Below, piece by piece: positions 2,671 through 18,953 of a stretch of 36,629 bases of DNA. Each line of letters begins with the position of its first letter. Position 1 is the stretch's first letter. The translations under genes and the position numbers were made by a program. Under the pieces are notes generated by a model that worked only from the letters and a program-made list of their open reading frames with translations, searched no databases and was not told the DNA's origin. The DNA comes from an uncultured Pseudomonadales bacterium (GTDB lineage Bacteria > Patescibacteriota > Microgenomatia > UBA1400 > MFAQ01). The stretch lies in the NCBI GenBank assembly GCA_964352325.1, contig CAYGRQ010000001.1, forward strand, positions 1 to 36,629. Reading direction: 5' to 3'.

Positions 2671-3364
2671 TCAAAAGGTAGTGGTTTGTCTTCAGCCACT
2701 TGATGTGCATTTTGTAGTCAGGGTCGAGACTTTTGACTAGATCCCAAAAACTTTGGCGGTGGTGATGATGGATCAAATGACAAACCTCGTGGATGATGAC
2801 ATAGTCGACGACTTTGTGGGGGGCCATGATGAGCTTGCGGTTGAAGTTGAGATTGTTTTTGCGTGAACAACTACCCCAGATGGAGGAAACTTTCTTCAGG
2901 ACAATGCGGTTATGGGAAATGTTGAGTAGCTTGGTGAAGAAGTTAACCTTTTCGGTGATGATCCTCTTGCCGTTGTCGAGATACCAGCGGAGCATGGCTT
3001 CTTCCAGACCCTTTCTTTGTTTATGCGGAGGATGATGGGCGGGGACTTTGGCTTCAAAACAGTTGTAGAGAAATTGTAACCTGGGAGTAGCGATACCGAC
3101 AGTCGGAATGACGGCAAGGGGGTACTCTTCGCCGAAATAGAGGTGCTTTTCACCGTCGGTGTATTGTTTCGCTTTTGGATGTGGCTGGGCGCCGAGCCGA
3201 GCGAGAGTTTTTCTAATCCAGTCGGCTTTTGCCCGCACTATTTCTTCGATAGCCGAAAGAGATACCCAGGGAGGAACGGAAACTACCACTCCCCTCTCGG
3301 GTGTGATTGAGATTGATGAAGAAAGGCGGCGGCGGGAACTGCGAACGACTTTATAATTAATCAT
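2663..3364 (-). CDS. YgjP/DUF45-type (M48-like) zinc metallopeptidase
   Basis: HEVCHLIHHHH (HExxH) near the C-terminus and a DUF45-like N-terminus (YKVVRSSRRRLSSSISITPERGVVVSVP). The stop overlaps the convergent upstream CDS by 8 nt. Confidence 0.8.
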   Translation of the reverse strand: MINYKVVRSSRRRLSSSISITPERGVVVSVPPWVSLSAIEEIVRAKADWIRKTLARLGAQPHPKAKQYTDGEKHLYFGEEYPLAVIPTVGIATPRLQFLYNCFEAKVPAHHPPHKQRKGLEEAMLRWYLDNGKRIITEKVNFFTKLLNISHNRIVLKKVSSIWGSCSRKNNLNFNRKLIMAPHKVVDYVIIHEVCHLIHHHHRQSFWDLVKSLDPDYKMHIKWLKTNHYLLTI

Positions 3365-3440
3365 GGTGGACCCGGAAGGTCTCGAACCTTCGACCTCCCC
3401 GATGTGACCGGGGCGCTCTAACCAGCTGAGCTACGGGTCC
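3364..3440 (-). tRNA. tRNA-Val (anticodon CAC), CCA encoded
   Basis: The reverse complement GGACCCGTAGCTCAGCTGGTTAGAGCGCCCCGGTCACATCGGGGAGGTCGAAGGTTCGAGACCTTCCGGGTCCACCA folds by hand into a cloverleaf. Stems: 7-bp acceptor GGACCCG/CGGGTCC, D stem GCTC/GAGC, anticodon stem CCCCG/CGGGG with loop GTCACAT (U33, CAC, A37), T stem GAAGG/CCTTC with loop TTCGAGA. Confidence 0.93.
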
Positions 3441-3696
3441 TTAATGATAAGGTGTATTTTACAATTAGATCTTTAATTTGCCTACCAAACCCAGATTTAT
3501 AAAACTTTTCCCGAAGAATGGCGTCTTTTTTGCAGAAATAATTTTCGGAATAAATTAACTCAAATGGAGCGTTTAGCTTAGTGAAAGAATTACTTCCATT
3601 GTTGTGTTCAACCAAGCGTGTCTCTGGATTTTTTGACGTACTACCAACATACACCTTTTCATTTTTCAAACTTTTTAGAAAATATATGTAAAACAT
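3418..3696 (-). CDS. GIY-YIG nuclease family protein (URI/YhbQ-like, 92 aa)
   Basis: MFYIYFLKS..EKVYVGSTSKNPETRLVEHNNG...REKFYKS matches the GIY...YxG...R..EH...E core. The last 8 codons (LRTRSSAG) and the TAG stop are supplied by the 5' part of the tRNA-Val gene (overlap 3418-3440). Confidence 0.8.
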   Translation of the reverse strand: MFYIYFLKSLKNEKVYVGSTSKNPETRLVEHNNGSNSFTKLNAPFELIYSENYFCKKDAILREKFYKSGFGRQIKDLIVKYTLSLRTRSSAG

Positions 3697-3705
3697 ATTT
3701 AATCT

Positions 3706-3763
3706 GCGCTCTAACCTCCGCCATAGGCGGATCAGCCTTTGGCTGAAACTGCGCTACGGGTCC
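3706..3763 (-). pseudogene. Degenerate duplicate of tRNA-Val positions 1-27, interrupted in the D-loop by a 30-nt insert
   Basis: The minus strand reads GGACCCGTAGCGCAGTT[TCAGCCAAAGGCTGA][TCCGCCTATGGCGGA]GGTTAGAGCGC. Outside the insert it matches the real tRNA 5' part at 26/28 positions. It has no anticodon or T arm and runs straight into the GIY-YIG start region. Confidence 0.8.
3717..3746. repeat. Two abutting 15-nt palindromes (6-bp stem, 3-nt loop each) inside the tRNA fragment
   Basis: TCCGCC-ATA-GGCGGA (3717-3731) is followed directly by TCAGCC-TTT-GGCTGA (3732-3746). Both share the pattern TC-NGCC-NNN-GGCN-GA. Confidence 0.85.
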
Positions 3764-3773
3764 TTTTGGGCTT

Positions 3774-3792
3774 GCCCGACGATTCGTCGGGC
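3774..3792. other. Perfect 8-bp stem / 3-nt loop hairpin in the divergent intergenic region
   Basis: GCCCGACG-ATT-CGTCGGGC. It lies inside the TTG-initiated 5' extension of the lepB ORF, which argues for a downstream lepB start. Function unknown. Confidence 0.5.
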
Positions 3793-3828
3793 TTGAATTA
3801 TTATACCAAGAGCCTTAAGCTTAAAGAT

Positions 3829-4395
3829 GTGGCTAGGATAGTGAAAAAGTTCTTGGGTCTGTTGTACGAAATGGTGGAGGTGTTCGTGGTTTCGGCCTCG
3901 ATTTTTGTGGTGGTTTATCTTTTTTTGATGCAGCCGCATCAGGTAAAGGGTAGTTCGATGTTTCCCACCTTTCACGACGGCGAGTATGTTCTGACCGACA
4001 AAGTGACTTTTCGGACCAGGGCACCAAAATGGGGTGACGTGATCGTTTTTAGAGCACCGGTGAATGAAAATTTTGATTTCATCAAGCGGGTCATCGCCGT
4101 TCCCGGTGACAGAATCATGGTTTCCGGAGGCAAAGTCTATGTCAATGGCCAACCCCTTGATGAGTTCTACCTCCCCCCTGAATACACAACCGCGGCCGGG
4201 CAGTTTTTAAGAGAGGGAACGGAATATACAATTCCAGGAGGCTCGGTTTTTGCCGTCGGTGATAATCGTGGCCATTCTTCGGATAGTCGCGACTGGGGGC
4301 CAGTCCCCTACCAAAACATTGTCGGGAAAGCGTTTTTCCGCTACTGGCCGGGAGATAAAGTGGGTTTGATCGTTAACCCGGTGGAAAATCAATAA
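3829..4395 (+). CDS. lepB: Signal peptidase I
   Basis: GSSMFPTF (catalytic Ser), FIKRVIAVPGDRI (catalytic Lys box) and GDNRGHSSDSR. The ORF track begins at a TTG at 3739, inside the tRNA fragment and hairpin. GTG 3829 (chosen here) or ATG 3871 are more plausible starts, and the choice remains uncertain. Confidence 0.88.
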   Translation: MARIVKKFLGLLYEMVEVFVVSASIFVVVYLFLMQPHQVKGSSMFPTFHDGEYVLTDKVTFRTRAPKWGDVIVFRAPVNENFDFIKRVIAVPGDRIMVSGGKVYVNGQPLDEFYLPPEYTTAAGQFLREGTEYTIPGGSVFAVGDNRGHSSDSRDWGPVPYQNIVGKAFFRYWPGDKVGLIVNPVENQ

Positions 4396-16457: not shown

Positions 16458-17518
16458 AGGTTGCGGGCGACACTTGCTAGTATACCAAGGGCGGCAAATG
16501 TCGTGACCAAAGCAGAACCGCCGTAAGAAATGAGCGGTAGGGGTATGCCGGTCAGGGGGACGATGGCTACCATTGAAGCCAGGTTGACGAAGGTCTGGGC
16601 CGAAAAGAGGATGGCAACGCCGGCCGCCAGGAGCCGGCTGTGTTGGTCTCTCGCCGAAAAAGCGATGCGGAAAGCCAGGAGAGACAAGGATAGAAGTAGA
16701 CCGATCAGAACCAAGCCGCCGACAAAACCCAGTTCTTCGCCGATAATGGCGAAAATTGAGTCGGTGGTCGCTTCGGGCAGGTAGGCATATTTCTGACGGG
16801 AACGCCCCAAGCCCACGCCGGACAAACCCCCCGAACCCAAACCCAAAAGAACTTGGTTAATGTGATAGGAACGGCCGAGCGGGTCAGCCGTTGGCTCGAT
16901 GAAAGTCTTTAACCGCTCGAGCCGGTAGGAGGAACTGAAAATGAGAAACAGACCGGCAAAGACTAAGGTCGAAACGACGAGCAGAAGGTCGCGGGCCTTG
17001 GCGCCGGAGACATAAAAAAGGCCGAAACCAATCATGGCGACAACAACGGCGGTTCCCAGGTCGGGCTGGAGCATGACGAGCCCCAAACAGACCGCCAGCA
17101 AGAGAGTTAGTTTTTTCATCTCCCGATTCGACGTCAGCCAACTGGCCAGGTAAACAACGAGGCCAACTTTAAGGAGCTCCGAGGGTTGAAACCGAAAAAA
17201 ACCAAGTGAGAGCCAGCGCCGCGCGCCCTGTAAACGCAGCCCCAAACCGGGGATCAACACCAGGATCATGGACAAGAGAGCCACGACGAAAAAAGGCAGG
17301 GCGATTTTTTTGTAAAACCTAGGCGACAAACTTGAGGCGACAAAATAGATGACAAGACCCAGGAGGAGCCAGGTGGCTTGTTGTTTAACGAAATAGTATT
17401 TGTCGTGAAAGTTGTTAAAAGCCTCGACGACGGAGGCGTTGTAAACGGCAACCAGGCCGATCAACGAAATGAAAAGAGCGAGTCCGGTTAGGAGGGTAAA
17501 ATAGGGATGCCGCTTCAT
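16454..17518 (-). CDS. ftsW: SEDS-family lipid II polymerase FtsW
   Basis: QPDLGTAVV, YLPEATTDSIFAIIGEELGFVGG and GIPLPLISYGGSA. ATG 17518 forms an ATGA overlap with the mraY stop. The 33-aa upstream extension in the ORF track is rejected. Confidence 0.9.
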   Translation of the reverse strand: MKRHPYFTLLTGLALFISLIGLVAVYNASVVEAFNNFHDKYYFVKQQATWLLLGLVIYFVASSLSPRFYKKIALPFFVVALLSMILVLIPGLGLRLQGARRWLSLGFFRFQPSELLKVGLVVYLASWLTSNREMKKLTLLLAVCLGLVMLQPDLGTAVVVAMIGFGLFYVSGAKARDLLLVVSTLVFAGLFLIFSSSYRLERLKTFIEPTADPLGRSYHINQVLLGLGSGGLSGVGLGRSRQKYAYLPEATTDSIFAIIGEELGFVGGLVLIGLLLSLSLLAFRIAFSARDQHSRLLAAGVAILFSAQTFVNLASMVAIVPLTGIPLPLISYGGSALVTTFAALGILASVARNL

Positions 17519-18549
17519 ATGACCGCTAGCCAGAGGCCAAAAACAACAACCATAATGCCGGCCAACCAAGCCCGCTGGACGATTTTCGGTTCGGTCCAGC
17601 CAATTTTCAGGAGCCAATAATGAATCGGAGCGATGGGGAACAGGCGTTTACCCGTCAGTTTTACCGAAGCAATTTGGAGAAGACTGCTGGCGCCATCGAC
17701 CAGGAAGGGCGCGCCAACGACCAATAGGGCAATTGTTTTCCCCAAAAGCAAACCGATGACGGCCAAGGTGGCGCCAAAGGCCATCGCCCCGGCATCTCCC
17801 ATAAAAATACGGGCAGGATAAACGTTGAAATAGAGGAAGGCAATTAGGCCGCCCAGCCAGAGGGCAATGAAGATTGAGATGGGGGTATCGAGAACGGAAA
17901 CGGAAAGCATCAGAAAGCCGAAGAGGCCGATCATGAGTAAGCCCCCAGCTAGGCCGTCCATGCCATCGGTGATATTGACGGCATTGGCAAAAGTTATGAC
18001 CACAAAGGCGGCAACAGGAATAAACCAAAAGCCCAGGTTCATGACACCAATGAATGGGATATTGATAATACTGATATGCAGATTGAAGTACATCAAGGAA
18101 CCAATAATTAGGCCTAGGACAGTCTGAATGGCGAATTTGTTTCTGGTTTTTAGACCGGCATAGCCCAAATCCCGGTCCAGTTCAAAGTACTTGACGATGT
18201 CATCGTAGAGGCCAAGAAGACCGAAGGCCAAAAAAGTGAAGAAAATGACGTTAATTTCCTCATTGATCGGGTAGACGTGGGTGATGTTGACGCCCAGGAG
18301 TTTAAAAAGTGGTAGCAGAGCGGCAAAAATGAGACTAGTGATGACGATGATGAGCAGGCCGCCGCCCTCCGGGGTTCTGGATTTGGACCGAATATGGACC
18401 GAGGCGGTGTCAGTCATACTGGCGATGACGGCGGTTTTCCTTTTGAAAAACTTAACCCGGTAGAGGAGGTTAATGAAAGGAACAACGGCGGTGGCGTGGA
18501 TGATGAAGGAGATGAGTATGATTCCTAGAAGGATCGATATTGATGACAT
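17515..18549 (-). CDS. mraY: Phospho-N-acetylmuramoyl-pentapeptide transferase
   Basis: NAVNITDGMDGLAGG, FMGDAGAMAFGA, and a polytopic membrane profile. Confidence 0.95.
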   Translation of the reverse strand: MSSISILLGIILISFIIHATAVVPFINLLYRVKFFKRKTAVIASMTDTASVHIRSKSRTPEGGGLLIIVITSLIFAALLPLFKLLGVNITHVYPINEEINVIFFTFLAFGLLGLYDDIVKYFELDRDLGYAGLKTRNKFAIQTVLGLIIGSLMYFNLHISIINIPFIGVMNLGFWFIPVAAFVVITFANAVNITDGMDGLAGGLLMIGLFGFLMLSVSVLDTPISIFIALWLGGLIAFLYFNVYPARIFMGDAGAMAFGATLAVIGLLLGKTIALLVVGAPFLVDGASSLLQIASVKLTGKRLFPIAPIHYWLLKIGWTEPKIVQRAWLAGIMVVVFGLWLAVI

Positions 18550-18554
18550 GATCG

Positions 18555-18953
18555 CTAGAGCTTTCCGCCAAAGGCGAATTGGCCTTTGGCCAAGGCTGTT
18601 AACAGATAGGGTAGAAAAACAAGCAGGCCGGTGATGACCGCCATGGCGGCAGTCGTCAGGACCATGCCGGCGGAAACATCCTTGGCGACTCTGGCTAGCT
18701 CATGAAATTTTTCGGTATGGAGGTCGACTACCGACTCAATGCTGGTATTGATCATCTCGGTGATAAAAACCAGACCGATGATGAAAACGATAACTGACCA
18801 CTCGGCCGAAGTGAGGTTGAAATAAAAGCCGGCGCTGATGGCGATGATGGCCGCAATTAAATGAACGCGAAAGTTGGGTTGGGTTTTGATGGTATAGCTG
18901 ACGCCGTCGAGGGCGTGCTTAAAGGAGATAGTATGCCGCTGGTTCGGTGACAC
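18555..18953 (-). CDS. dgkA: DgkA-family lipid kinase (diacylglycerol/undecaprenol kinase)
   Basis: 132 aa, three TM segments, SFKHALDGVSYTIKTQPNFRVH and EMINTSIESVVD. GTG start. Confidence 0.85.
   Translation of the reverse strand: MSPNQRHTISFKHALDGVSYTIKTQPNFRVHLIAAIIAISAGFYFNLTSAEWSVIVFIIGLVFITEMINTSIESVVDLHTEKFHELARVAKDVSAGMVLTTAAMAVITGLLVFLPYLLTALAKGQFAFGGKL

Follow-up and report, generated by a model that had tools for sequence, protein, structure and literature searches.

The subject of this study is a stretch of 36,629 nucleotides (nt) of contig CAYGRQ010000001.1 (the window), in which a segment of 323 bp (3441-3763), composed of a small GIY-YIG nuclease gene, a double hairpin (HP2) and part of a transfer RNA (tRNA), lies within a tRNA-Val(CAC) gene. 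The closest described system is SegB of phages T4 and T6, a free-standing GIY-YIG homing endonuclease that is encoded in a tRNA gene cluster and makes its cuts within tRNA genes; it is found together with tRNAs of many isotypes, is propagated by recombinational repair with co-conversion and drives the tandem amplification of a tRNA-Tyr+segB unit through microhomology shared by the tRNA's 5' end and segB's 3' end (PMC13096335). The SegB motif RAWTSGAAC can, in our own reading, be taken as the antisense of the T loop. As with SegB, the GIY-YIG gene described here and its relatives stand among tRNA genes, co-oriented with them and without isotype preference, and the junction of a tRNA 5' end with a nuclease 3' end recurs, the 3' end of the open reading frame (ORF) in the window being the 5' end of its tRNA. 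SegB is phage-encoded (PMC13096335), whereas the present element is chromosomal in the Candidate Phyla Radiation (CPR) and other bacteria. The window element differs further in its protein, a 92-aa catalytic core of the Slx1/UPF0213 clade, in the clade-specific hairpin that a disabled tRNA copy bears in its D or T loop, and in a stop codon supplied by the tRNA. SegB itself is far longer and possesses a separate DNA-binding region at its C-terminus.

In size and domain the window protein is the same as the stand-alone UPF0213 proteins (1ywl, 1zg2). Slx1 of eukaryotes acts on branched DNA as a structure-specific nuclease, and by analogy an activity of this type would suit the recognition of a hairpin or cruciform. 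A phylogenomic survey of 2006 delineated an 'Slx-1 cluster' of stand-alone prokaryotic GIY-YIG domains and reported no linkage to tRNA genes (PMC1564403). A second likeness is to repetitive extragenic palindromic (REP) sequences with their REP-associated tyrosine transposases (RAYTs) and to miniature inverted-repeat transposable elements (MITEs): short GC-rich hairpins are dispersed, one copy flanks a small nuclease gene, ORF-bearing and ORF-less versions exist, and some repeats lie in frame at gene ends (window 18555-18953). RAYTs are relatives of HUH/Y1 transposases and not GIY-YIG enzymes, and REPs are neither aimed at tRNA loops nor tied to tRNA duplication. HP2 stands at at least 120 metagenome sites, two copies being in the window; the type of hairpin goes with the clade of the nuclease, and the enzyme belongs to another class than RAYTs. 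Elements mobilised by tyrosine integrases also use a tRNA gene as landing site and keep it functional through a partial duplicate, but the window element is without an integrase, duplicates the 5' end, measures 323 bp and has variable junctions. A literature search that included the palindrome sequences found no description of the present arrangement for cellular genomes; a paper beyond the searched literature is possible.

Segment 3441-3763 is probably a copy of a mobile, homing-endonuclease-like tRNA-gene cassette, made up of a minimal GIY-YIG nuclease gene, its cognate hairpin module (HP2) and part of the tRNA that it targets. The cut site and the function of the hairpin are proposed with much lower confidence than the mobility of the cassette.

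The tRNA-Val locus and its empty counterparts

The features of the locus, together with the second hairpin copy of the window, are as follows.

3800-3805, minus strand: TATAAT -10 box of the native tRNA-Val promoter, with TGG ahead of the box; read from the sequence and also present in the empty-site contigs L082-L084
3774-3792, minus strand: native tRNA-Val leader hairpin GCCCGACG-AAT-CGTCGGGC, with a predicted 8-bp stem, followed by 'aagcccaaaa'; outside the cassette
3747-3763, minus strand: pseudo-tRNA-Val positions 1-17, GGACCCGTAGCgCAGtT; repeat of 16/17 including two leader nt
3717-3746, minus strand: HP2 double hairpin, TCAGCC-AAA-GGCTGA plus TCCGCC-TAT-GGCGGA, exactly between tRNA positions 17 and 18
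3706-3716, minus strand: pseudo-tRNA-Val positions 18-28, GGTTAGAGCGC; repeat of 11/11
3697-3705, minus strand: 9-nt spacer agattaaat ahead of the ATG
3418-3696, minus strand: GIY-YIG nuclease ORF of 92 aa, catalytic domain only (Slx1/UPF0213-like), Pfam PF01541
3364-3440, minus strand: intact tRNA-Val(CAC), by ARAGORN and Rfam
18564-18595, plus strand: second, diverged copy of the HP2 family outside tRNAs, between mraY and a dgkA-like ORF; pattern match with three mismatches

An earlier, sequence-only reading of the locus had described an intact tRNA-Val(CAC), preceded by a GIY-YIG ORF running 23 nt into it and by a disrupted copy of its own 5' half, and these points were borne out. ARAGORN found a single tRNA in the whole window, tRNA-Val(CAC) at 3364-3440 on the minus strand, which scored 62.6 bits against the Rfam tRNA model, and the Rfam scan gave no tRNA-like score for the upstream fragment. 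The fragment was recovered by a repeat finder as two co-linear repeats, 3749-3765 against 3426-3442 (16/17) and 3706-3716 against 3413-3423 (11/11), the offsets of which differ by exactly 30 nt. The 30-nt D-loop insert consists, as had been read, of two abutting 6-bp hairpins, and the folding of the 111-nt leader region stood at z=-3.6 against shuffles. By linear count the fragment comprises tRNA positions 1-17 and 18-28, 26/28 identical; its location and identity stand as first given, while its extent, put at positions 1-27, becomes 1-28, and against the tRNA-Val allele of the L080 type, which reads GGTTAGAGCGCAGC, it may reach position 30 (GGTTAGAGCGCAG; AG to 3704). The ORF, supported by its PF01541 match, has its final 23 nt, TAG included, inside tRNA-Val, residues 85-92 and the stop codon being tRNA positions 1-23. 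No obvious Shine-Dalgarno sequence was seen on inspection of the 9-nt spacer (3697-3705). The identical arrangement is present in five independent Hainich groundwater assemblies (L001-L005), by which mis-assembly of the arrangement itself was ruled out. Chance similarity of the fragment was ruled out on account of its two co-linear repeats, of the comparison with empty sites and of the recurrence described below.

Homologues of the flanking YgjP-like peptidase put the window in or near Candidatus Collierbacteria. Contigs with close YgjP homologues keep the order of an S26 signal peptidase gene, an intergenic region, ygjP and a large lipase-like gene. In L082/L083, whose ygjP product is 74% identical to that of the window, the intergenic region runs from TATAAT through an identical leader hairpin, 'aagcccaaaat' and one tRNA-Val(CAC) to the ATG of ygjP, and the GIY-YIG ORF, the tRNA fragment and HP2 are all absent from it. 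A single tRNA-Val is found in L080/81 and L084 as well. The distance from TATAAT to the leader hairpin is equal in the window and in the empty-site contigs L082-L084, and the pseudo-tRNA stands as far from the leader as the tRNA does in the empty sites. The leader hairpin had at first been listed within the arrangement; it is also present in the cassette-free L082/L083 and is therefore the native tRNA leader and not part of the element. It follows from the empty-site comparison that the fragment holds the ancestral 5' place and the intact tRNA the ancestral 3' place.

The comparison of tRNA-Val(CAC) loci among relatives, which the earlier reading had put forward as a check, revealed presence/absence polymorphism at one locus, L080-L084 being empty and the window and L001-L005 filled. 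Subtraction of the empty from the filled site leaves 323 bp (3441-3763) gained inside the tRNA gene, which replaces the 265-bp cassette (3441-3705) first delimited. The tRNA duplication leaves two ways of placing the insertion: at 28|29, needing a second insertion for HP2, or at 17|18, where the added block would run from HP2 through positions 18-28, the spacer and the ORF body to positions 1-17. An insertion or recombination in the D loop at 17|18, the point that the hairpin occupies in all relatives of the HP2 clade and at which sister cassettes meet the tRNA, fits the data as well as or better than the point 27/28 of the earlier reading, whose notion of an insertion that left an intact tRNA is upheld by the empty sites L082/L083.

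A remnant of an integrase-type tRNA-targeting element, or a tRNA intron, would bear a general resemblance to the locus, in that a duplicated tRNA piece flanks foreign DNA. In the 36.6-kb window, however, no integrase is encoded among the neighbouring genes, all of which are housekeeping genes syntenic with the empty-site relatives, in agreement with the contrast to classical elements drawn earlier. The insert measures just 323 bp, the tRNA 5' end and not the 3' end is duplicated, the functional tRNA is contiguous (ARAGORN), and no Rfam intron or ribozyme match was obtained in 3000-4200 at E<=10. On the absent integrase, the 5' duplication, the contiguous tRNA and the missing intron match, an integrase island or intron is effectively refuted and its probability close to nil.

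The nuclease and its recurrence at tRNA genes

The 92-aa protein scored 58.7 bits with the Pfam GIY-YIG profile PF01541 (threshold 22.6; E=7.3e-16), its residues 1-71 aligning with positions 1-73 of the 78 in the profile. Among 27 relatives Y5, Y16 and G18 are nearly invariant and R27, H31, N32 and E63 invariant, all of them being present in the window protein, and by comparison with the GIY-YIG family they are presumably catalytic. The best PDB profile matches were the UPF0213 structures 1ywl (E=2.4e-8) and 1zg2 (1.4e-7), the match to SLX1 (7wme) being weaker (3e-3), and as a bare catalytic core the protein fits the stand-alone Slx1-like/UPF0213 group (~80-110 aa). A profile search gathered 15,662 clusters at 50% identity, 3,438 of them at E<=1e-10 and mostly of 80-130 aa, which is also the size of most of the 150 best relatives. 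The protein has no separate DNA-binding domain and no residues past the catalytic core except the eight C-terminal ones translated from the tRNA. A separate DNA-binding domain for long-site specificity is a feature of I-TevI and the Seg proteins. The PADLOC scan for defence systems gave no match, and NCBIfam and PHROGs gave only weak, sub-threshold matches of the type 'group I intron endonuclease / homing endonuclease'.

With regard to database sequences, many entries (P0024, P0007, P0021 and many others) carry 20-50 extra N-terminal residues where the ORF call was extended through the hairpin and the tRNA fragment, and the ORF call of P0002 continues through the downstream tRNA. Database entries of the family thus appear to bear artefactual tails encoded by tRNA or hairpin.

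Loci of relatives were collected with a pattern (from a 9-sequence subset of relatives) plus a tblastn scan, with one genome per species, giving 74 loci from Patescibacteria, Bacteroidota, Chloroflexota, Planctomycetota, Omnitrophota and one Bathyarchaeia metagenome-assembled genome (MAG). A tRNA lay within 150 nt of the ORF in 54/74 loci and on the same strand in 54/54, against 0.045 tRNAs expected per search interval from the tRNA density elsewhere in the same loci, and 27 tRNA/anticodon types were involved. Of 51 loci that could be tested, 37 had an exact copy of at least 12 nt of the adjacent tRNA on the opposite side of the ORF (control, 1/51), so that other GIY-YIG genes beside tRNA fragments, a search for which had been suggested earlier, make the arrangement widespread and not a one-off. 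The ORF is always co-oriented with the tRNA and, having no stop codon of its own, ends at a TAG of the tRNA: in 11 loci the stop falls at +10 nt of the downstream tRNA (TAG at positions 8-10) and in six loci at +20 to +24 nt (the D-loop TAG, positions 21-23 in the window). Because the ORF stops inside the tRNA, many homologues end in peptides of the kind RTRSSAG or WGGSSIG. Premature stops interrupt about nine of the 74 ORFs.

Two layouts can be distinguished. Type A, to which the window belongs, has a 5' tRNA fragment with hairpin, the ORF and the intact tRNA; type B is its mirror, with the intact tRNA, an ORF reading through the hairpin, and the tRNA from position 18 onward (L012, L013, L014, L017). 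In both, the hairpin lies in the disabled tRNA copy, which is eroded on the side facing the ORF. A perfect tandem array is formed in L017, in the order tRNA-Ala, spacer, ORF, HP2, positions 18-77, spacer, ORF, HP2, positions 18-76. In Flavobacterium loci, the palindrome CCTGCCTGCCGGCAGGCAGG described below occupies the T loop in 3' fragments of tRNA-Leu that flank the ORF on both sides, and in L041 the palindrome is in the T loop of a fragment spanning positions 1-63. Together the relatives include tandem arrays and mirror forms, and also degenerate ORFs and ORF-less relics, the last two forming a decay series.

Two further loci may be mentioned beside these. In L194 (11000-11400), a pseudo-tRNA-Ile with two HP2 copies, in the D loop and in the T loop, follows an internally deleted ORF (reading MYYVYFAESLRNNKI up to the stop codon); the 22-nt 3' flank of the tRNA and the ATG are repeated after the pseudo-tRNA-Ile, and the tandem unit is therefore tRNA + spacer + ORF. 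In L150 (3170-3290, reverse strand), a full-length tRNA-Val(GAC)-like gene bears HP2 in its D loop and two acceptor-stem mismatches, and ARAGORN mis-calls there a 79-nt tRNA beginning within the hairpin; the 13.5-kb locus has no intact tRNA-Val(GAC) copy and no GIY-YIG ORF.

Hairpin modules in and outside tRNA genes

In alignment, HP2 always lies between tRNA positions 17|18, both in the type A fragments and at the 3' coding end of the ORF in type B, and the 30-nt insert of the window is co-linear with HP2 of both. The tRNA fragments beside ORFs almost always carry a hairpin in the D or T loop, and its type tracks the protein clade: HP2 accompanies proteins at least 53% identical to that of the window at 15 of 16 loci, while the palindrome CCTGCCTGCCGGCAGGCAGG or its variants accompany proteins at most 48% identical to it, whatever the host phylum. 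Hairpin matches numbered 68 in 48 kb beside ORFs against 3 in 273 kb farther off, and the degenerate HP2 pattern had no chance match in 100 shuffles of the window.

A metagenome scan with this pattern detected HP2 in at least 120 stretches, with 111 unique sites among the matches listed, to which the counts that follow refer. A tRNA D-loop context was found at 47 of the 111; of these, 18 have a GIY-YIG ORF and 24 are ORF-less with an intact same-strand tRNA within 450 nt, and some ORF-less relics retain ORF remnants (e.g. GFGRKIRNAI). Outside tRNAs lie 64 of the 111, 59 of them with neither ORF nor tRNA nearby. Under a stricter flank test, D-loop context was present at 40 of 112 listed sites, compared with 0.27% of random positions. 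The search pattern leaves four stem positions unconstrained, and at these 106-111 of the 112 listed instances pair, with at least three pair types; this stem covariation therefore indicates that the hairpin or palindrome is selected. The copies outside tRNAs share a TT left flank (T at -2 in 56/64 and at -1 in 48/64), and repeats of 5-7 nt (GGNNNTT) flank some of them, though not consistently.

The second copy in the window (18564-18595, TCCGCCAAAGGCGAATTGGCCTTTGGCCAAGG; no chance matches expected) lies in the region of the 5-nt gap between mraY (17515-18549, minus strand) and an ORF at 18555-18953 (minus strand). On the minus strand it encodes the end of this dgkA-like ORF (..ALAKGQFAFGGKL, then the stop codon), and the repeat has therefore been absorbed into the coding end. 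Rickettsia palindromic elements offer a likeness to such absorption. The search for further copies of the double hairpin, proposed when it was still unexplained, accordingly yielded one more in the window and the listed metagenome sites, and identified it as a dispersed repeat family whose type co-varies with the nuclease clade and which forms the 3' coding end of the ORF in sister cassettes.

It may be that two unrelated events were superimposed, a GIY-YIG cassette having entered at ~28/29 with 5' tRNA duplication and HP2 having landed later and independently in the dead copy. HP2 would then be mobilised by another enzyme with a preference for D-loop-like TT|GG and, being lethal in a functional tRNA, would be seen in pseudo-copies only. 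The dispersal of HP2 to sites outside tRNAs, most of them far from any ORF or tRNA, the second copy in the window, the TT flank common to the non-tRNA copies and the 24 listed ORF-less fragments beside intact tRNAs all speak for such a course. Random later landings, however, would leave many fragments empty, whereas nearly every ORF-adjacent tRNA fragment carries a hairpin; the hairpin type follows the protein clade and not the host phylum; the mirror-image ORFs read through HP2, with conserved C-termini such as ..SAKGGSASGG; and one 20-nt palindrome stands beside such ORFs in Bacteroidota, Chloroflexota and Patescibacteria. We regard two separate events as a minority possibility. For the role of the hairpin itself, three candidates can be deduced: it could disrupt the target in the spare copy, serve as recognition structure for the nuclease, or be an independent repeat surviving only in dead copies.

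Several observations on hairpins stand apart from this comparison. The perfect 20-nt palindrome CCTGCCTGCCGGCAGGCAGG is found inside tRNA fragments of Bacteroidota, Dehalococcoidia and several Patescibacteria (L024, L036, L053, L066 and others), and such conservation across phyla would imply recognition by a protein or very recent spread. In L131, the palindrome lies ~40-60 nt upstream of HP2, nested beside it in one pseudo-tRNA. At 2440-2480 of L084, GGTCGCGACCACCA is followed by a hairpin (tcCCGCCGCGGCGG) and by GGTCGCGACCACCA again, with no ORF, and downstream of tRNAs in L106 and L176 GC-rich hairpins likewise lie between duplicated tRNA 3' ends. Short duplications of tRNA ends may therefore accompany hairpin insertion as such in CPR genomes.

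Lateral copying and a proposed route of spread

L002/L004/L005 represent a second strain, the ygjP of which is 77.5% identical to that of the window (50 mismatches over 222 aligned nt plus a 6-nt indel), and the promoter region of L002 is ~80% identical. Across the fragment, HP2, spacer and ORF the window and the second strain are 323/323 identical, and across the tRNA 76/77; divergence like that of the flanks would put ~56 differences into the 256-nt ORF body, and 0 were observed. An identical 323-bp cassette in diverged flanks points to recent lateral copying. L002 is without exactly the 21-nt native leader hairpin (L002 ~120-140; window 3774-3794), yet the cassette is present; the leader hairpin can therefore be dispensed with, and the converted tract has its left end close to the -10 box. 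Elsewhere too the ORF is more conserved than its flanks, with identities of 97% vs 84% (L046/L056), 98.6% vs 85% (L050/L056) and 90.7% vs 79.8% (L015/L016), and two loci of one Bacteroidales MAG (L063/L064) have ORFs 98% identical in unrelated flanks. The pattern would be that of lateral copying with variable co-conversion tracts.

A nuclease that exploits the tRNA gene as its home, offered as one alternative by the sequence-only reading, is accordingly the interpretation we favour, with moderate confidence, on the 27 tRNA types, the presence/absence polymorphism and the identical cassette in diverged backgrounds. These same observations weigh against the view that the ORF is a host gene tied to tRNAs, that is, an RNA/DNA-processing or repair nuclease for which the fragments are by-products of tandem duplication and the hairpins regulatory or processing signals. 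Strict co-orientation and likely co-transcription with tRNAs would suit a host gene, as would the stem covariation of HP2, which is also compatible with RNA structure, the very large family (15,662 clusters) and the speculation, with a TrmH fusion in view, that the Slx1-like stand-alone GIY-YIG group touches RNA metabolism (PMC1564403). A host gene should not, however, be absent at the same locus in close relatives, identical in backgrounds ~22% diverged, without fixed partner among 27 tRNA types, frequently reduced to pseudogenes and ORF-less relics, or present in multiple copies and tandem arrays, and we consider a host function unlikely.

For the homing cassette, the following route can be proposed. 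The whole unit would be transcribed as one RNA from the tRNA promoter, and the nuclease would break tRNA-gene DNA in a conserved loop-coding segment. For the HP2 clade this would be the D loop at 17|18, and for the clade with the palindrome either the T loop or the D loop at 21|22. A copy bearing the element would serve for recombinational repair, its hairpin, ORF and tRNA segment passing into the broken gene by homing with co-conversion, and tandem duplications could arise through short tRNA homologies during repair. Genes for tRNAs in CPR genomes are probably mostly single-copy and essential, and because of this only products that keep one intact tRNA would survive, while the redundant copy would bear the hairpin and erode toward the ORF. 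A unit of spacer, ORF, tRNA 1-17, hairpin and tRNA 18-N, recombining to the left or right of the hairpin, could give types A and B. Speculatively, an RNase P cut at 3441|3440 would strip the stop codon of the ORF from the mRNA and may hold nuclease expression low.

Certain observations weigh against the mobile-cassette interpretation. The second-strain contigs (L002/L004/L005) are short and of 2-4x coverage, at which assembly chimerism across the tRNA is possible, although the sequence of L002 is diverged on either side and a 21-nt deletion private to it lies only 14 nt from the fragment. The protein is a catalytic core of ~85 aa, with no DNA-binding domain for finding a site, and tblastn against phage and plasmid collections (phage E<=1e-5) gave no match and no carrier. 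The putative cut site at D-loop 17|18 is read off from the position of the hairpin. The intact tRNA retains the presumed D-loop target and shows no consistent immunising substitution, the dinucleotide before position 18 being the same in both copies in L009, L011, L018 and L019; in the window the D loop has CT|GG in the intact tRNA against TT|GG in the fragment, with no general rule across loci. Also, the 64 of 111 listed HP2 copies that lie outside tRNAs and are ORF-less could mean that the hairpin is an independent repeat surviving in dead tRNA copies.

A bolder extension of the favoured reading, which we advance only tentatively and hold to be doubtful, is that an Slx1-like nuclease of ~85 aa recognises the clade-specific hairpin or cruciform (HP2 or the 20-nt palindrome), by this means breaks and invades the conserved loop segments of tRNA genes and mobilises ORF-less hairpins in trans across the genome, which would make it a new class of mobile element and the GIY-YIG counterpart of REP/RAYT. 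An extreme variant, in which the transcript of tRNA fragment plus hairpin serves the nuclease as guide or handle, is very improbable.

Were the mobile-cassette interpretation true, a very large stand-alone GIY-YIG family (15,662 clusters at 50% identity) would gain a biological role, essential, probably single-copy tRNA genes of reduced CPR genomes would be habitual homes of selfish DNA, and the pseudo-tRNA fragments, odd hairpins and 'tRNA-tailed' ORFs near tRNA genes in MAGs would be accounted for. The relationship of SegB with tRNAs would reach beyond phages to cellular chromosomes, where the enzyme is far smaller. Should the hairpin be a recognition module, a compact nuclease drawing its specificity from DNA or RNA structure could be a possible tool. 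In practical terms, gene callers turn tRNA and hairpin DNA into the C- and N-termini of proteins at these loci, ..RTRSSAG and ..SAKGGSASGG being examples.

Minor features of the window complete the description. A generic promoter and terminator scan left TATAAT unflagged, because the -35 is weak, and found no terminator. Perfect GC-rich hairpins number nine in the window against 5.4 expected, and of these only the three at 3717-3790 and the HP2 copy at 18564-18595 are relevant here. The final base of tRNA-Val (3364) is the A of the ygjP start codon, and this zero-spacer join is kept in the cassette-free L082/L083 (L082 2500-2503); from the conserved junction, ygjP is probably translated from a transcript that contains the tRNA.

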